64,000 nt of DNA from Octopus sinensis (Eukaryota): assembly GCF_006345805.1 (NCBI RefSeq), contig NC_043002.1, forward strand, positions 91,450,001 through 91,514,000. Reading direction: 5' to 3'. A program made the position numbers and the translations under genes. Positions 3,662 through 62,925 of the stretch are shown here, one piece after another (the stretch's first letter is position 1; every line of letters begins with the position of its first letter). The notes under the pieces were generated by a model. That model ran no database searches and was not told where the DNA came from. It worked only from the letters and a program-made list of their open reading frames with translations.

Positions 3662-4362
3662 GGAGGGAGAGAGAGCGCGAAAGGAATCAGACAGAGGTAT
3701 GAATATCTGTAGAAGGAACTGCGTTGAGAGAAGCTCTAATGCCGATTTCCTTTCCGTTTTCGGAGATTTTATCCGAATCTTAATTTCTAATACAGGAGGA
3801 GAGGCAAAGTTGATTAAAATGACTCCAGTGCTGAAGTGGTATTTATTTTATTGACTCTACAATGATGAATAATAAAGTAAATACTGGTTTGATTTGAACG
3901 CAGAACGCTTAGGTATGCACTAAGTACTACATTAAAATGTTTCAATACTTACTGATTCTGCAAATACCACCCACCCCTCCATTTGCTCATAATACTGATT
4001 TTTTTTTTTTTTACCGTAGAGACATGACCTCAGATTTCGAGGTTGGAAATAGTTGATTATATCGAGCATTGCACACGACAGCGATAACATTTAAACATAT
4101 AATCTAAATAGTAGTATCAAAAGTATTACAAAATATTTGTCTGATGCCCAACCAATATCCACAGCCCATCATCTTCCTGTTCATCACAAAGTTGACTTTA
4201 CTAAAACATAAAAGCAACTCCATCTGCTTCTGTAATACGTCCAAACGGTTCAGGATCCAATCACGAGGAAAAGGATTAATACAGCAGTCAGGATTACGAC
4301 AGCGGGGTATTTCGATTTTCGTACGTGCTTCCATACATACTTACATATGTCTGCGTATATAT

Positions 4363-7457: not shown

Positions 7458-7937
7458 TTTTAATTAAAAATAATGTGAGTGAAAGAGCATTATATTTGAT
7501 AGAAAAATCTGAACGCTATAAGGTCAAACAAAGTGATTGTGTCCCACGGATAGTATTATACGTGATCATAATAAATGGCGTCCGTCTTATTTGTTTCGTA
7601 TGAGTGAAACATGCCACTTGGCATAAATGGTGCTAAGAATGTTATCTTGTCAGAACTGCTGTTAGTGTTGTCGTATGCCTTTCATCTACAGTTGAGAATT
7701 CTCATCATATTTATTACTCATTGCCTCTCCCATTCTGTTCCCATCGGAACGGTATATCACAGACTATTGCAACCTCTTCAAGTGAGGCAATTGTTAAAAT
7801 AGAATGTATGAATCATTACATCCGGATTGAGAAAAGCGTGGTAAAACAAAATAGCAACCACACACACAGACACCCAACACACTGATTCACGAGTGACCAC
7901 CAACAACAAATAATAACAACAAAATAATAATAATAAT

Positions 7938-9989: not shown

Positions 9990-10754
9990 CTTCACATGCA
10001 ATCAAAAGATTACACTACTGGAAAAAAAAAGAATCCTAACATCGGGCTACAAGCACCCTTAGATGCCAAGAACCCTCCTAAGTATCCTAGCTGTCCCTAA
10101 TAACACTGTTTTCTGCAGCTGTACTAAACTGAGTTTTATGCCTATTTCCTCTAATCCCTCTGTTCCGATATTTAGAGATAGTTCTTCATGCACCTATATC
10201 TATTGAGATACATTTTAGCTACAGTTTCCATAGTCACTGTAATTCTATAGCTAAGTCCTGGTACTTTGCTATTTTTTCTATACTTCTCATATTAATTTTT
10301 TCATTATTTGGGACTGTAAAGTCAATTATTTGACACTTTCTACTCTCTTCATCTACTGCTACCAAATCAGGGCTTCCAGCTTCTATTACTCTGTCAGTCT
10401 GAATGTTAAAGTCCCATAACATTCTATATTTCTTACTTTCTGGTACTTTACTAGGTTCATGTTCATACCATTTATCAGTGTGTTCAAAACTTAGCTTTCT
10501 ACATAGCTCCCAGTGGATTACTCTCCCGAAATTGTAACGTCCTTTTTGTATTTTCTGTGCCAGCATGCTACATTCACTTACTATATGAGTAACGCTTTCC
10601 CATTTTGGTTTGCATAATCTATATTGGATATCTGCTTGGATTTTGTCTATTTTGGCTTTTATCCAATTAGTCCTTAATGTTTGATCTTGTACAGCTACTA
10701 ACAAACTTTCTGGCTTCCTCTTCAGTTTTCCTTTCTGCAACCATAACCATGTCT

Positions 10755-10757
<3 letters not shown>
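9990..10757 (-). mobile_element. R4/Dong-clade (RLE) LINE 3' fragment
   Basis: QDQTLRTNW, degenerate CCHC knuckle (YRLC...ESVTHIVSEC), LWDFNIQTDRVIE..PDL..IIDFTVP..KYQDL restriction-like endonuclease, LQKTVLLGTARILRRVL*. Confidence 0.85.
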
Positions 10758-10834
<77 letters not shown>

Positions 10835-10867
10835 TTATTATTATTATAATAATAATTATTATTATTA

Positions 10868-11212
10868 TTGGGTGACAGTGCAGTGCATGCCATCAAAGTG
10901 ACACTGGGGTAAAATATACGAAGCCCACCATACCCATCATGACTACGCGTCTGATAACGGTACACTAGGTAAATGCTTCACAATCATATGTCCGCGACAT
11001 TGGGAATCTTATTTCATGATAAACAGCGCATGACCTTGCAGGTGGAGGCCTAGTTAGAATATTCTTCGGGTTGAGTAGCCCATTCAGCTCAAAAGGTCCC
11101 TGAATATGGGTTTTTTAAGGATGTTGAACGAACCACCCATGTTTCCAAAGATGAATTATCCAAACCCCAAAGAATTCCTGTCAACACATGACTATGATGA
11201 TCCCCCACTCTT
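10868..11212 (-). mobile_element. Second copy of the 8526-9077 element
   Basis: catgccatcaaagtgacactgg...aaaaggtccctgaata is the reverse complement of part of 8526-9077. Confidence 0.7.
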
Positions 11213-13370: not shown

Positions 13371-14830
13371 AAGGTAGAAAACATAGAACTTGATACTACC
13401 TCAGCTATTGGAAACCTAGACCAATCCGAAGTATACAAATATCTGGGAACCAATGAAGGTGATGATATCCAGCACTCTAAAATGAAAGAGAAAATCCGCA
13501 AGGAATGCTACCGAAGGGTAAGAATGGTCCTAAACTCAGAACTAAATGCTGCTAACAGAATTAATGAGATCAATTCTTTGGCCATACCAGTAACCTTATA
13601 CAGCTTCGGTATCATTAAGTGAAGTCTCACTGATATGCAGAATATGGATAGAAAGATCCGTAAAATCCTTACACGGTACCGAATGCACCATCCAAAATCA
13701 GATGTAGACAGGATTTATCTCCCGAGAAAAATAGGTGGAAGAGGTTTTATACAGCTCGACCAATCCCTCAAATCAGCAATAATAGGCCTTGAAATGTGCC
13801 TTAATACAACAAGAGATGTGCTCTTACGAACTGCCCTGAAGTATGAAGATTTCAAAAAAGCTTCAGTCATAAAGAAATTCAAACAGTTTCTTTTTCCTAA
13901 ACGTTAACAATAAGAATGGCCAAAGACACTTAAAAATTAACAGACCTACCATTACTTCTCCTGATTTAGTAAGTAACAATCAGAAAGACCAATGAGATCC
14001 AAATAATGACAAACCTATTACTGACGCAAAAAACATCAAAAGCAAAAAAGGCTTGTATGAATAATATCGAAGACAACTGGAAAGGCAAACTCCTGGAGGG
14101 AAAATACCCTAACTGTTTGTCTAAGCCAGATATTGATCAAAACCAAACACATCAATAGATACAAGGGACAGATCTGTAAGGGTAAACGTATGGTTTTGTT
14201 ATTGTAGCGCAAGATCAGAGCTTACCTACCAGAAACTACTGTGTAAACATCCTTAAAGTTGCGTCTGCTCCCACGTGGAGAATTTGCGGAAAATTCACAA
14301 AGACAATTGACCATGTTGTTTCTGACTGCCCAATCCTCGCGGAAAAGGAGTACCTCATAAGATATGACAGACTACGGCAGTACATCCACTGGAATGTTTG
14401 TAAATACTACATAATTAAATCTCATAAGTGGTACAGGCACCATCCAGAGGGTGTAGTAAATGGTGATGGCGTCACCATCCTTTGGATACAAACAGACAAA
14501 ATAATTGACTCCAATCGACCAGACATTTTGATCAAGAACTACGACAGAAGAACTTGTCTGTTAATTGAAATGACAGTCCCACAAGATCAAAATGTCTCAA
14601 GAAAAGAATACGGGAAGCTTTCTCATTATAAAGATCTGCAAATTGAAATCACAAAAATGTGTAAGGTTAGTACTACGATAATACCAGTAGTAATTAAGGC
14701 GTTGGAAATGATGAAGAAGGGAGCTGAGTAGTATATTAAGCAACTCCATGGCAACTCCAATCTTCGTGAACTACAAAAGATAACCTTGATGGGTACAGCC
14801 CATATACTACGGAAAGCACTCTTCATCTAA
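13371..14830 (+). mobile_element. R4/Dong-clade LINE, 5'-truncated (late RT, zinc knuckle, RLE), with stops and frameshifts
   Basis: YKYLG, RIYLPRKIGGRG, QDQSLPTRNY, ICGKFTKTIDHVVSDC, NRPDILI..LIEMTVP..KLSHYKDL, LMGTAHILRKAL. Confidence 0.9.
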
Positions 14831-43970: not shown

Positions 43971-45500
43971 TCACAGGCGAAACCTGAGAATTGGTCCATT
44001 TACACTGGCCATTCTTGCACAATTCACCCACCTTTTAGAAAACTTGCTATCAGCCAGCACTCTCCTCTCTAACCTCATTTTCCTTTTCAAGTGAAACTTG
44101 AAAAAGTTGATGAGGCCTTGACCAAAGAGGAAAGTGTCTGACTTTAGCCCTTTCAAACGTGTCCACCATACAACCTCTTTCGCCACAGCCACTAAGGTAC
44201 AGGAAAACGGCCTTGCCCTCCTTGTTAAAGGAGGTCGGCGGGGCAATCTTCACTGTGGATTCAGCTGATAGCCGGATCCGTCCTATACGTGACAGTAGCT
44301 GTTCGACATAAACCCATAGTTCAGCAATATTCGGGCACTGGACGAGTGCGTGCAGAACGGTTTCGTCGTCCTGGCAACACTTCGGGCAGGCCCGGCTGAT
44401 GGCACTTCGGTGCCGGTTGAGTTTATCCCGTACAGGCAGAGCCCATCGGTAGCACTGCCAGACGAGCGACCTCTGAAAGTTATCCATTGGCCCCGGCCCG
44501 AAAGTCCTTCCGAATAGACCGCTCAGTTCGTTATCATCAACGCCTAGAGTTCCCCCGAGAACGTCGTTGCATTTTTCCTCCATTAACCCTCTATAGAACG
44601 CTAGAGTGGAACTAACACCGATCGCATTGCCCGCCTGGCGGAGGGTGGAGAGAGCTTGACGGCACTCAAAGTGCCAAGCGCCCTTTCTCGGTCTACGTTT
44701 GATCTAGGTCTGCAGCTCTGTCAAAGGGACGAGCTGCGGAAAGTCGCGTCTGACAAAAGACGACCACACTTGTTCACCGTCTAGGAAACGCTTGAGATGT
44801 CGCAGCCTGAGCGCATGTCTGTGCATCAGTAACCACGGCATGCCAAGGCCTCCGTTCAGCGGTCGTTGACAGCAGCTGCCTTGAGAACAGCTGCCAAGTA
44901 CCGATGGTCGACCCTATCGAAAGCTTTACTCTGATCTAAATTGATAAAAGCCCCACCCGCGCCAGCGTCGTTACACACCCTCTCTATGATGTAGCGCATG
45001 AGATGGAGGTTGTCATGTGTCGACCTGGTCGGTACGGCGCATCTCTGCTTCTTGCCAATCAGATTGTCCACGACAAGCGCCAATCTCTTGGCTAGCACCT
45101 TGGCCAAAATCTTCAACTCTGCATTGAGCAGAGTGATGGGCCGAAAATTCCCTATAATGTCCCCTTTGTTTGGGTCCTTTTCTAGCAAAGCCACCACCCC
45201 TCGACAGACAAAAGCAGAAATTCTCCCGTTTTGCTGCCAGTTGCAGTAGACGTTTGCCAACAGGCCCGCAAACAGGTCTGGCATTGAAGTGTAAAGCTCG
45301 TAGGGCGATCTACCTCTCGTGCAACTCTTCATTGCTTCCTCCACTTCCCAGGCAGATATCGGTCCCTCGCAGCACTCTGCCTCGCTGTCCGAGAGTTGCG
45401 GTAGGCCGTCCAGGTACACACCGAAGTCTTTACCGTTGTTCGTTGCACCGCTCGTCCCAAACAGTTGAGCAAAGTGCCGCTGAAACACCGCAGCTCTCCT
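43971..45500 (-). pseudogene. Tx1-like ORF2 remnant (partial RT + zinc-finger tail)
   Basis: ORF pieces 44856-45884, 44050-44583 and 43971-44246. Confidence 0.85.
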
Positions 45501-45748
45501 GATCCAGAAAGGGGATGGCTGTCGGGTCCGCTTCAGCAGCAGGGCGAAAAATTGTTGGTTCTGCTGGTAGCGGTGGTGTTGCTGTATCTGTTGGTGATGG
45601 TGACGGTGTCGGTGATTCTTCTTCTTCCTTTTTTTGTTGTTGGTGTTTTTCTTGGTGCTGGGGTTGGTGTTGGTTTGGTGGTTGGAGGTGTTGTCGTTCG
45701 TCGTGGTGGTGGTAATGGTGTTGGTGGTGTGGCAGCCTTTGGTGTTTC

Positions 45749-46868
45749 TTACTGTTGTTGTTTCTGTTGTTGTTGTTGTTGATGTTGTTGTTGCTGCTGC
45801 AGCTTCTTGCCTTCTGCCTCCATTCTTTTTTTGTAAATGGGACAGTCCCACTTTAGGTGGCTTTCGCTGCTGCAGAGGTAACATTTTGGCTTTCGCCCCT
45901 CCACAGCAACGTGCAGCCTGGTTCCGTCCGGCAAATTTACCGAGTCAGGTATGGCATTAATGTTTTCCTGCTGGATTTTTCCCAGCAGTTGAACTCCCAT
46001 ACCTGACCAGTTTTTTTCCCTCACTCTTCGTACATCTAGAATAGTGGCAGTGTCCTCTATGTCATAGAGGACAGCCGCCACCAGCCATGATATATTTAGT
46101 TCGGGGGGTACTGTGTCGATTTTTATTTTTTGGACCCTCCGCCCGAGGTATGTTGGAACAAGGAACAGATTTTCATTTTGCAAGGGCGAAATGGCATGCG
46201 CCCTTGCATCCTCCTCTGTTGGGAAGCGAACCTCCACAGTTCCGAAACGCTTCCCTCTGGTGACATAGCTCTTTTTGCCCCATATGGGCTTCAGAACTAT
46301 TTCCAATTGTTGGGGTGTTGCGTTGATTAATCTTTTGTTTTTCTTGTCGAAAACCTTGTAAAATATCGTCTTCTTGTTTGTGTCATGTATGAGTTGTTGA
46401 GGTGTATTGAGGAAAACACTGTTTCCCTATGTTCTCAACAACTCCTTTGCGCTTTTTATTTGGTCCATCGTAACTTTTACTTCCTCCGAGTTTTCTTTTG
46501 CAGCGGAGGCAAAATTGCTACGATGGCTTGTTGTGTTGTTTGCTGGTGGTGGTGTCGGTGTGGCTGCTGGTCATTTTCTTTGCTTCTTTCTCCGGTACTG
46601 GAGCACTGGTGGAAGGAAGAGAAGGCAAATCTTCGTTGACGTCAAAGGTGACGCCATCGTTGTCGCTTTTCTTTGCAACGCTCTTTCTTCCGTCCTTCCC
46701 CGGTACTGGAGCACTGGTGGAGAGAAGAGGAGGGAAATCTTCGATGACGTCAAAAGTGACGCTTTCGTTTTCATTTTCATTTAGAACGTTGAACGTGCTG
46801 ACACGTTCCATCGAAACATTTTGTTTGCCTTTTAAGGCACGAAATGGGCGGTTTGGAGAAATGTTCAA
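45749..46868 (-). pseudogene. Tx1-like ORF1 (gag-like, zinc knuckle), frameshifted
   Basis: ORF segments 46518-46868 and 45749-46306; VEGRKPKCYLCSSESHLKWDC. Confidence 0.75.
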
Positions 46869-46989
46869 ATCAATTTTTTTCTTGTGTCGGGGGGGGGGGG
46901 TGTTCGAAGAAGGGAACAGCCAACTGTTCTCTTCGACATCTTTTCAATATGTATGTGAATGTAATTTTAAAAAAGTCAATATTTCAAAC

Positions 46990-47190
46990 GAAAATTTTAC
47001 CCCTAAGAAAGATTTGTACAAATGTAAAGATAGAACACCTATAAAAGTCAGCATTGCTTGGAACGGCAAGAATTCTTCGCAGGGACCTTGAAACATGACC
47101 AGTAAACAAGTGCCACAGTAGTCTGCTGGTTGTGGACAGTGGATACTTTCCATCATACCCAGCAAAATAAGCCAAGAGTCTTCATCAAAT
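46990..47190 (+). mobile_element. R4/Dong-clade LINE 3' end
   Basis: EHL*KSALLGTARILRRDLET*. Confidence 0.65.
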
Positions 47191-59445: not shown

Positions 59446-60558
59446 ACACACTACGCGCGCGCGCACATGGAGGGAGTAAGAGAGAGAGAAGGGGGAAAGG
59501 AGAGAAGCCGAGTAAAGAAGAGTTATTGGCGGCAACATGATGGAGGAAAATGGATAAAGTCTGTGGATTAATGGGAAAAGTGTAAGGAGAGTAAGCAGAA
59601 CAGAGAGATGGAGAGTAAGCAGAACAGAGAGATGGAGAGAAAGAAAGAAAACGAAATAAAAAAAAATTGCAGTGAAAAGACAGAAAAGACAGAAATAGAA
59701 AAAGCAAAACGAAGAGGGGGGAAATAGGAGCGGGGGGGGCAGATAAGAAAGGAGAGTTATAGGTCGCTGGAAGAAGAGAGAACGGATGAAAATGGCATTA
59801 TGGCGGTAGGTAGAGGAGGATTGGTTGTAAACTAGAGCTGGCACTGTTATCGATCTAAGTCCTATTGGAAGCGGAATCAGCAACAAATGTAAGGATTATT
59901 GCCCAACAAACACAGTAAAAAATAAATAAATAAACGAATAAATAAACAACCAAAGATGGCGACTGCCAGAACAGCATCGCCGCCATCACTATCGTTATCA
60001 TCATCATCATCTTCATCATCACCATCATCACCATCATCACCATCATTGTCGTCGTCATAATTAGGTTGATTATTATAACCAGGATCACCATGATAACCAT
60101 ATGAACATCACATCACGATGGATATTATCATCATCATCATCATATCATCATCATATCATCATCATCACCTTCGTCATCTACAACAACAACAAAAATAACA
60201 CCATCACCATCACCAACAGCAACAATAGCAGCAACAGCCAAACCAACACCATCCACCACCACCAATAACAACAACAACAACAACAACAGTAACACCGGGG
60301 ACAACATTAATAGCAACAATAATGAACAGTTATAATATCGTCTTTCTACATGATTGACGAGCTTCGCTGTGGACGAAGTCTTTGAAGTATTACTCCCAAC
60401 TACGCACATTGTTATATACACAAACGTGGGCATGCGCACACGCATTCATATCAATATATGTATATATAAACATATATATATATATGACGTATATGAATAT
60501 ACATGGCATACATATGTGTGTGTGTGCGTATGTATATACCATATTTACATCTGTGTGT

Positions 60559-60593
<35 letters not shown>

Positions 60594-60876
60594 GCATATA
60601 TTTATATACATATGTGTATATATCTATATATATGCATATAAATAAATGTGTATAGATATCTATATATATTTAAGTAGGTGAATGAATTATCCTATGTTTA
60701 TCGTCAGCATGGAAAATTCGTTTAACCGAAACCTGGGTAGCAAATTCACGTCAGAAAACACGGTTGAAGCGACCTGTCAAGGGTAGAAACTCTGGGTTCA
60801 TGTGTAGAAATTTGTGTGTTGTATATGAATAAATGAAAGAATGGAGTCGAACAAAGATGTTAACAAAATTCCTTTA

Positions 60877-60958
60877 CTCTCGACATATGTTTCGAAGACA
60901 CCATATTTTCATTCCAAAGGAATAAAGGGTGCATTATGCAATCTTCTCACCAGGAAAG
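60877..60958 (-). ncRNA. Hammerhead ribozyme copy with core substitution (CUGGUGA)
   Basis: Same fold; stem III is the perfect palindrome ACAUAUGU. Confidence 0.6.
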
Positions 60959-61615
60959 AAAGGGAGCCTCTCTCGACAACAAGACAAACAAAGATTTCGA
61001 TGATTGCCTACATGGTAAACAAAGCGATACTGAGTGTTTTTTTTTTTAAATCCGTTAGAAGAATTGACGTCAAAAATAGATAGTAGGAGGAAGAGAAGGG
61101 ATAAAGTAATAATAGGTAGGGAACAGTATATCATTTATATGAGTAGAAAGTGTGATAACAATAGTCACTGTGGTTTGAACAATTAGCTTTACGTCCACCC
61201 TACTGCTATAGAGAAATTCTTTCCTATGCCTTCGAACATTCTTTCAATCAACGTACCCTTCCCTCTCCACTTGTTCCCTACCTATTATTCCTTTATACCT
61301 TCCCTTCCTACTATCTATCTTTGACGTCTGTCTCTCTCTCTCACACACACAATCACACACACAGACACAAATGCAGTTATACACACACACATACACACAC
61401 AAAAACACAAGCACACATCCACACATTTCCATACATACAGCAAACATACTGTTCCCTACCTATTATTACTTTATCCCTTCTCTTCCTCCTACTATCTATT
61501 TTTGACGTCAATTCTTCTAACGGATTTTTTAAAAAAACTCTCATTATCGCTTTGTTTACGATGTAGGCAATCATCGAAATTTTTGTTTGTCTTGTTGTCG
61601 AGAGAGGCTCCCTTT

Positions 61616-61697
61616 CTTTCCTGATGAGAAGATTGCATAATGCACCCTTTATTCCTTTGGAATGAAAATATGGTGTCTTCGAAACATGTGTCGAGAG
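61616..61697 (+). ncRNA. Type I hammerhead ribozyme with extended stem II
   Basis: CUUUC-CUGAUGA-GAAGA...UCUUC-GAAA-CAUGU-GUC-GAGAG: intact core, stem I CUUUC/GAGAG, GUC cleavage triplet. Confidence 0.8.
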
Positions 61698-61872
61698 TAA
61701 AGGAATTTTGTTAACATCATCGTTCGACTCCATTCTTTCAATTATTCATATATCTATATATATATATAAATATCAAAGGTGAGAGCGAGTGCGAGAGCAT
61801 GTGTATATGTATACACAAGCACACACACACCACACACACACACACACAACACAACACATACATATGTATAGC

Positions 61873-62269: not shown

Positions 62270-62388
62270 TTAAGAGATGAGGAATTATGTACATTATTTA
62301 CATTTGACGGATATTTGCCCTGATCTTGTTTGTTGTTAATACAACGTTTGAGCTAATATACCCTCCATTCTTCATCAGGTGTATTTTT
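62270..62388 (-). mobile_element. HH-B element, second degenerate copy
   Basis: Minus strand tacac-ctgatga...caaacgttgtatt...gtaaataatgtaca. Confidence 0.65.
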
Positions 62389-62389
62389 G

Positions 62390-62436
<47 letters not shown>

Positions 62437-62445
62437 CATTATTAT

Positions 62446-62595
62446 ATTCATATATCGGCCTGGAATCGAACTCGGAATCTTGGGGTTAGTAGCTCATGTT
62501 CTTAACCACTACGCCACGGGCATATGGCAAAGTGGTTAAGAACGTGGGCTACTAACCCCCAAGATTCCGAGTTTGATTCCAGGCAGTGACCTGAA
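62446..62595. repeat. Head-to-head palindromic tRNA-like pair, second instance
   Basis: Homologous to 51624-51772. Confidence 0.85.
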
Positions 62596-62925
62596 TAATA
62601 ATAATAATATTAATAATAATAATAATAATAATAAATAATGTATGTGTATATATGTTTGTTTATATGTATAGTCATGTATGTAAGTCCGCGCGCACACTTA
62701 TATAAAAGTTTTCCTTCATGTATAATCATGTATAACAACAAACATCAAATGGAAATATTACTCAATAGCTTTCAATTGAGTAACGTATATATATATATAT
62801 ATTGTATTTGCGAGGAAATGATTAACATTGAATACGAATTTTCGGGAACTAACCTTCATAGGACTAGTAGCTAATTCTAAACGCAGAATAGCCGTAAACA
62901 CGTAAACACATGCGCGCGCGTGCAC

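Follow-up and report, generated by a model that had tools for sequence, protein, structure and literature searches.

The inverted repeat between positions 60666 and 61752 of the window (the whole stretch of 64,000 nucleotides of Octopus sinensis DNA analyzed here) is almost certainly a 5′-truncated Penelope-like retrotransposon of high copy number, its 3′ end inserted head to head; that it is this and also has no function at its present locus is, taken jointly, very probable. An earlier, sequence-only reading had described the feature as a young, non-coding ribozyme retroelement of Penelope type that could cleave transcripts after position 61692. Its assignment to Penelope-type hammerhead insertions proved right, the family having an RT–endonuclease ORF and hammerheads in its pseudo-LTRs. 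‘Non-coding’ was mistaken, the insertion being the truncated end of a protein-coding RT–endonuclease family, and ‘young’ was overstated: copies lie ~3.5% apart pairwise and are decaying without detectable selection.

Identity of the insertion

The two near-identical divergent arms reported previously (61446-61752 on the plus strand and 60822-61129 on the minus strand; 295 of 308 positions identical, 316 bp apart) are present, and each belongs to a longer copy of the element (Table 1). The right copy, beginning at about 61153, is a 92% match to L034:7591-8216 of another family locus, directly 3′ of the L034 stop codon, and covers the post-stop-codon sequence through the 3′ end of the element, ending 60 nt beyond the predicted hammerhead cleavage site. 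The left copy runs to 215 nt past its own site, 155 nt beyond the end seen earlier, and carries the only ORF content of the window insertion, the last codons of the element ORF. A third copy in the spacer was rejected, as the spacer matches the element’s own 3′ UTR; what had been taken for a ‘partial third copy’ is a 57-bp duplication in that UTR (61272-61328), which is present beside many other copies. Elsewhere in the window, a short SINE-like inverted pair lies at 62383-62639 with (TAT)n and (ATA)n tracts at its flanks, and 44050-47091, 10234-10977 and 14186-14731 hold what we take to be broken LINE-like retrotransposon pieces; LINE-like pieces in the window carry RT, zinc-knuckle and restriction-like endonuclease motifs.

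Table 1. Features of the insertion, in window coordinates
Feature	Position	Strand	Description
(TA)n-rich target tract, left flank	60454..60665		read from sequence
Left inverted copy	60666..61155	-	last ORF codons, ~295-nt deletion and pseudo-LTR
155-nt ‘tail’ of left copy	60666..60821	-	corresponds to the 5′ leader toward the ORF start codon (+263) in tandem full-length copies
Second hammerhead (predicted)	60871..60963	-	A6G core change at 60950; predicted site 60882/60881
Remnant of last codons and stop codon, element ORF	61128..61155	-	reverse complement of L034 ~7570-7596
Right copy	61153..61752	+	5′-truncated 3′ end (3′ UTR / pseudo-LTR) of Hydra-type Penelope-like element
57-bp internal duplication of 61450-61509	61272..61328	+	within element 3′ UTR; flanks CA-rich tract
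Type I hammerhead, canonical core (predicted)	61611..61703	+	predicted cleavage 61692/61693
Helix II, 53 nt	61628..61680	+	lower stem 61628-61638/61670-61680, internal loop, apical hairpin 61648-61655/61659-61666
Stem III octamer, self-complementary	61684..61691	+	monomer: 2 bp and 4-nt loop; dimer: 6-8-bp duplex
(TA)n-rich target tract, right flank	61753..61772		read from sequence

Matches to the arm in the 2.72-Gb genome gave 1611 first-look candidates, the best 40 of which were scored and proved 94–100% identical, and at least 781 places match a 29-nt motif over the cleavage site exactly, against 0 for its reversed control. Over 30 loci, upstream homology thins out in a pattern of 5′ truncation. 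Upstream of the pseudo-LTR in L034 lies an open frame of 670 aa with the motifs DKT, KDHK, FDIS, MGS, YRDD and FLD; the endonuclease part of the ORF is readable in L008, and sister subfamilies have single frames of 778–923 aa. The family motifs (DKT, KDHK, FD, MG, YRDD and, toward the C terminus, Y.G, CxxC..E and CxH) align by eye with those of Hydra-1_Obim and fit the diagnosis of the Hydra clade as given in Craig et al. 2021 (PMC8557442). At curated cut-offs, Pfam returned no family for protein P0001 or for three sister ORFs, the GIY-YIG family was matched by two of 34 aligned proteins, the first protein not among them, and a PDB sequence search found no solved-structure match for the RT; the RT identity therefore rests on the motifs and on comparison with the published alignment. 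Among 82 protein matches, one, from Argonauta hians, is 39% identical.

The hallmarks of endonuclease-bearing (EN+) Penelope-like elements are found in the family: a single ORF with RT and GIY-YIG parts (by motifs, in family copies), partial tandems acting as pseudo-LTRs (L042, L056, L064 and others read 3′ UTR–leader–ORF–3′ UTR), 5′ truncation with an inverted copy at the 5′ end and a tail at one end, and a hammerhead in the pseudo-LTR. Traits of the Hydra clade, including Hydra-1_Obim, are likewise shared (PMC8557442), namely a C-terminal GIY-YIG EN with CxxC and CxH round a conserved E and N (CxxC..E..N..CxH), DKT in place of DKG, KDHK, (TA)n targets, a 3′ type I hammerhead with palindromic stem III, and truncated and inverted copies; CCHH is absent from the family EN, by eye. 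This is nevertheless a family other than Hydra-1_Obim, with different protein and ribozyme sequences, and it departs from the clade as published there in having RWL for the N-terminal RWK motif, a unit of 3.2–3.7 kb where most are <3 kb, and an Asn/Ser-rich tract where the CxCx5C linker would be. The linker is absent in L064 and L069 and present in 25 of 34 aligned relatives, sister lineages of the same genome included. Because the lineage nests among linker-bearing relatives in the RT tree, the loss is likely secondary, and the family is best regarded as Hydra-type, not as a strict Hydra member. In the ORFs of L034, L054, L064, L069 and L073 the tract that replaces the linker zinc finger is long and its sequence is subfamily-specific.

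Hydra-type RTs are abundant in the same genome (14072 first-look candidates for one 362-aa query, of which the best 113 were scored). Another Hydra-type lineage (L088, L089 and L092), with intact 842-aa frames and near-identical hammerheads with a 51-nt helix II, looks recently active.

The earlier proposal that the repeat is a non-autonomous, non-coding retrozyme spreading as small circular RNA is extremely improbable. Like metazoan non-LTR retrozymes as described in PMC7229834, it has a type I hammerhead in an AT-rich repeated unit of a few hundred bases (~300 bp here); long copies are far outnumbered by short ones, and an origin of retrozymes from PLE pseudo-LTRs has been proposed (10.64898/2026.07.22.740005). 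Neighbors among the first 100 of the 781 listed places were divergent in 13 cases, same-strand in 6 and convergent in 1, the same-strand cases being in its favor. However, these are spaced 482–1987 nt apart with no fixed unit length, 5′ ends are scattered along the whole element into the ORF, ORF codons are kept in the left copy, and a tandem array of unit monomers is absent at the locus. Whereas retrozymes are non-coding tandem repeats expressed as small circles (PMC7229834), the family here is coding, has no head-to-tail repeats of a 150–450-bp unit, and left at this locus a truncation product.

Predicted hammerheads and transcripts of the locus

A strict descriptor finds only two hammerhead motifs on both strands of the 64-kb window, one per arm. 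The complete core (CUGAUGA 61621-61627, GAAA 61681-61684, GUC 61690-61692) and 5-bp stem I (61616-61620/61693-61697) attributed to the right arm are both there, with 5 more pairs (61611-61615/61699-61703) beyond a bulged U, as are the CUGGUGA core and palindromic stem III (ACAUAUGU) attributed to the left arm; the right-arm counterpart, ACAUGUGU, is likewise self-complementary via G.U pairs. The right arm thus fits the type I hammerhead definition (CUGANGA / GAAA / NUH with stems I–III), from which the left arm departs by A6G, and N7 and H17 vary between subfamilies, as expected for this type. An Rfam search gave no match at gathering score for the window hammerheads, and shuffled sequences fold about as well as the isolated 106-nt motif (z −0.26; −0.20 in a second value), so that support for the hammerhead is comparative.

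Stem II had been called unusually long and branched. The length was borne out; the branch, which paired CACC with GGUG, was rejected, as the family pairs GCAU with AUGC in an unbranched helix. The difference traces to G61673, a near-private base (present in both window arms and in one of 42 other copies) that breaks one family base pair of the right-arm helix II and raises its energy to −13.9 kcal/mol, against −16.5 kcal/mol for the family pairing.

Could the right-arm ribozyme cut host transcripts at 61692 and so serve as a regulatory element at this locus? Its canonical core would allow this, for the isolated arm the active monomer fold costs only 2.4 kcal/mol relative to the free minimum, and a transcript initiated in the spacer would avoid pairing with the other arm. 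Contigs of guessed-RNA runs also contain family 3′ fragments: four of 24 listed runs, guessed to be RNA and available as contigs, were compared with L044:235-1500 and contain family pieces, some bridging the cleavage site; no splice joint was found in those contigs, which cannot show RNA ends. Against regulation at the locus, a plus-strand transcript through both arms is predicted to form a hairpin of ~330 bp over the core (−581 kcal/mol by folding), in which the upstream antisense arm would sequester the right-arm ribozyme; helix II is weakened by G61673; inserted cores show no detectable selection (see below); and no recognizable host ORF of at least 170 aa lies nearby, a weak test for intron-rich genes. 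The window also holds no second same-sense hammerhead for dimerization. A long hairpin of this kind, if transcribed, is a possible substrate for RNA editing or small-RNA pathways.

Nor do insertion ends betray cleavage. Two of 30 loci start exactly at +1 of the cleavage site, and the seven pattern rows that start there comprise six true junctions, five of them independent. Control positions gave 13 rows at −12 (12 inspected, all junctions, ~9 independent), 4 at +24 (3 junctions) and, by pattern only, 3 at −8 and 13 at +8, of which 10 look like a one-base deletion. The idea that 5′ ends accumulate where the ribozyme would cut was accordingly rejected, +1 showing no excess over the controls. One copy that begins at the cleavage site, in L164 (~1480-1510), follows two short stuttering duplicates of its own opening bases, a pattern resembling successive template jumps by the RT.

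In PMC4209133 and PMC11167929, the tested PLE hammerheads are weak or need protein; some hammerheads with a 2-bp stem III cleave from single copies, and a mussel retrozyme repeat cleaves at ~0.1 per minute (PMC7229834). With no detectable selection on inserts, no 5′-end pile-up and a hairpin of ~330 bp, the cleavage of transcripts after 61692 that had been suggested is unlikely for host RNA, the arms being predicted to pair with each other and a same-sense partner being absent from the window. Probably no cutting takes place at this locus, a regulatory role here is very unlikely, and we infer that the insertion has no function where it stands.

The ribozyme across the family

Conservation was examined in an alignment (A1) of 26 hammerheads, one per locus, chosen to span subfamilies. 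Its rows were picked by a core-demanding pattern, so that core invariance in it is partly by construction. In this alignment helix II is an unbranched domain of 53 nt with a lower stem of 11–12 bp, an internal loop and an apical hairpin. Double changes occur in 7 of the 12 lower-stem pairs, which are 88.6% paired; the rows are related and not independent events, which inflates this count, and covariation across the family, proposed earlier as a check, is present to that extent. The structure as a whole is 92% paired, compared with 85.6% in shuffles (0/500) and 37–54% for slid partners, and RNAalifold recovers the lower helix II stem unprompted. In 25 distinct rows the inner pair of stem III takes the forms UG, UA and CG but never CA, so the dimer palindrome is kept; stem III is self-complementary in all 25.

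A homology-based check of 40 loci (L042-L081) found the core intact in 41 of 57 rows, three of which repeat a place. Of the 20 loci most distant in this set, which RT similarity had selected at ~70% DNA identity, 16 have an intact core, and the other four (L067, L068, L069 and L080) form one subfamily with a common U4C core change. Core conservation across copies, on which the sequence-only reading had let its ribozyme stand or fall, therefore largely held, with the U4C subfamily as the exception. This subfamily has frames of 704–854 aa and near-identical ribozyme regions. In the full-length copy L042 both pseudo-LTRs (410-519 and 3776-3885) have lost the GAAA core through the same 15-nt deletion, which ends at the cleavage site and lies between two 4-nt direct repeats. 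By the evidence of the U4C subfamily and L042, propagation does not strictly require a canonical ribozyme. In the close copies the core is intact in 56 of 69 cases, and changes are no rarer in it than elsewhere (15/1089 versus 252/13814; 1.4% versus 1.8%, p = 0.34). Selection on the ribozyme is thus visible between replicating lineages and not detectable on inserted copies. The commonest core change in the close family is A6G (3 of 69 arms), which could reflect chance or A-to-I editing of template RNA.

The long helix II extends beyond the close family. In 20 loci of more distant lineages the helix II domain measures 51–60 nt in 15 and 19 nt in one, with no motif in four; the long forms, those of a second lineage included, fold as unbranched imperfect hairpins. 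The four without a motif (L091, L093, L096 and L101) gave no hammerhead by either descriptor within 1.7–2.1 kb 3′ of the ORF, and theirs may be variants or sit at a greater distance. In an RT tree of 42 rows, long helices occupy four deep branches with the short form nested among them; the tree is midpoint-rooted without named reference elements and so gives no order of events. By contrast, in File S2 of PMC8557442 none of the 26 Hydra rows has loops longer than 10 nt or a helix II domain above ~25 nt. The family shares a type I fold, pseudo-LTR location, palindromic stem III and G10.1-C11.1 with the minimal, short-helix-III PLE hammerheads of Cervera and de la Pena 2014 (PMC4209133), whose helix II has 6–8 bp instead of 11–12 bp with an internal loop and apical hairpin; in PMC13725137, a helix II called ‘long’ has 6 bp. 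Length alone has precedent in the spike-moss hammerhead of PLE-X1_sMoe, with a helix II domain of ~53 nt (PMC8557442, File S2). This and PLE-X1_sTam, both flagged there as non-canonical, belong to EN-minus plant elements targeting 28S rDNA and are unrelated in sequence. Searches of the open literature showed no description of a long helix II hammerhead in cephalopods; subscription papers, Repbase and Dfam may hold such variants.

These patterns make it likely that the ribozyme is active in master RNAs, and the predicted hammerhead would likely work only in RNA of full-length elements. Cleavage there may be dimer- or protein-assisted, with the palindromic stem III linking one pseudo-LTR of a tandem transcript to the other. 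One model for such elements, proposed in PMC4209133, would have dimer cleavage by the two hammerheads followed by ligation of the unit RNA into a circle, reverse transcription of which from internal sites would yield the partial tandems. This concerns the family and is compatible with its Penelope-like identity. Copies do continue through the cleavage site on both sides, the self-complementary stem III suits dimer cleavage, and the deletion shared by both L042 pseudo-LTRs ends at that site. However, the same structures would be expected from a tandem transcript left uncleaved, which is the dominant in vitro template for PAc, the Anolis carolinensis element of PMC11167929; the U4C subfamily, moreover, has propagated. 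We therefore regard the circle as doubtful. Still less likely is a role in translation, whereby a cut in the upstream pseudo-LTR would release the ORF RNA from read-through transcripts and allow cap-independent initiation at the AUG, 263 nt further on. In fungal viruses and in plant reporters, 5′-UTR cleavage by a hammerhead does drive cap-independent translation (PMC13725137), and the leader geometry is compatible; the precedent is limited to fungi and plants, copies starting at the cleavage site are not in excess, and the leader of the window subfamily contains upstream AUGs.

Paired 3′ ends and a probable insertion mechanism

Divergent pairs are the usual arrangement of neighbors in the family, and two fixed 3′ ends recur in it. 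In 29 loci chosen by the arm alone, ends lie at +60 from the cleavage site in 18 cases, at +215 in 18 and at +69 in 2, and all nine pairs have one short and one long end. Over 144 loci, all 40 distinct divergent pairs combine an end near +60 with one near +215; this count leaves out 40 loci of distant subfamilies and lineages, and 30 of the 144 were picked for the +215 arm, which excludes a double +60 and not a double +215. Where full-length copies lie in tandem, the 155 nt that separate these ends belong to the 5′ leader, with the AUG at +263. Arms of the same pair agree in 79 of 84 comparisons at seven polymorphic sites (26 pairs with data), compared with 55% for shuffled partners (0/2000). 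Both arms of a pair come from one source; descent from two different source elements was rejected on this agreement. Four pairs have a discordant site, the window pair among them (at 61688).

A tail on one arm is known for Penelope elements (PMC8557442; PMC3846280), and opposite-strand hammerhead pairs 100–700 bp apart are described in PMC4209133. EN+ Penelope elements of Adineta vaga similarly have inverted pseudo-LTRs, a tail on one of the two and Asn-rich ORF inserts, but belong to another family, with a 31-bp tail and target-site duplications (PMC3846280). The closest mechanistic parallel is PAc, of the Poseidon clade (Frangieh et al. 2024, PMC11167929), whose protein nicks and extends both target strands, whose tail in vitro is the stretch between two internal RT start sites, and whose hammerhead is protein-assisted. 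As in PAc, two fixed 3′ ends bound the tail, targets are AT-rich, AC-rich sequence adjoins a start site and there is no sign of ends at the hammerhead site; unlike in PAc, the tail measures 155 nt and not 30–40 nt, the putative start sites lie in the 5′ leader and not in the ORF, and the hammerhead is fully outside the ORF.

The analogy with PAc makes priming on both strands, from two internal sites, a reasonably likely mechanism: the RT–endonuclease would nick both strands of a TA microsatellite, and one source RNA would be copied from two internal start sites, one per strand. A further conjecture, held only tentatively, joins two proposals, that each inverted insertion is the work of one dimeric complex obliged to use both start sites, 155 nt apart and one per strand, and that the helix II of 51–60 nt is a protein-docking arm that would make the hammerhead a switch run by its own RT–endonuclease. 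The long helix II places its terminal loop away from the usual position.

Known Penelope biology accounts for most of the feature. What is new, in degree, is the long covarying helix II in several Hydra-type lineages, the 155-nt tail with its strict one-arm rule and the loss of the linker zinc finger. The window locus itself is unremarkable retrotransposon debris; the family can help with the open question of what role hammerheads play in Penelope elements and by what route inverted insertions arise. Its assets are a long covarying helix II missed by Rfam, a 155-nt tail that sets the two putative start sites far enough apart to be scored at a glance, and long-frame subfamilies, one with a common core change, as natural comparisons. 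If the docking arm and the dimeric complex were real, the family would be an unusually readable genomic record of Penelope insertion.
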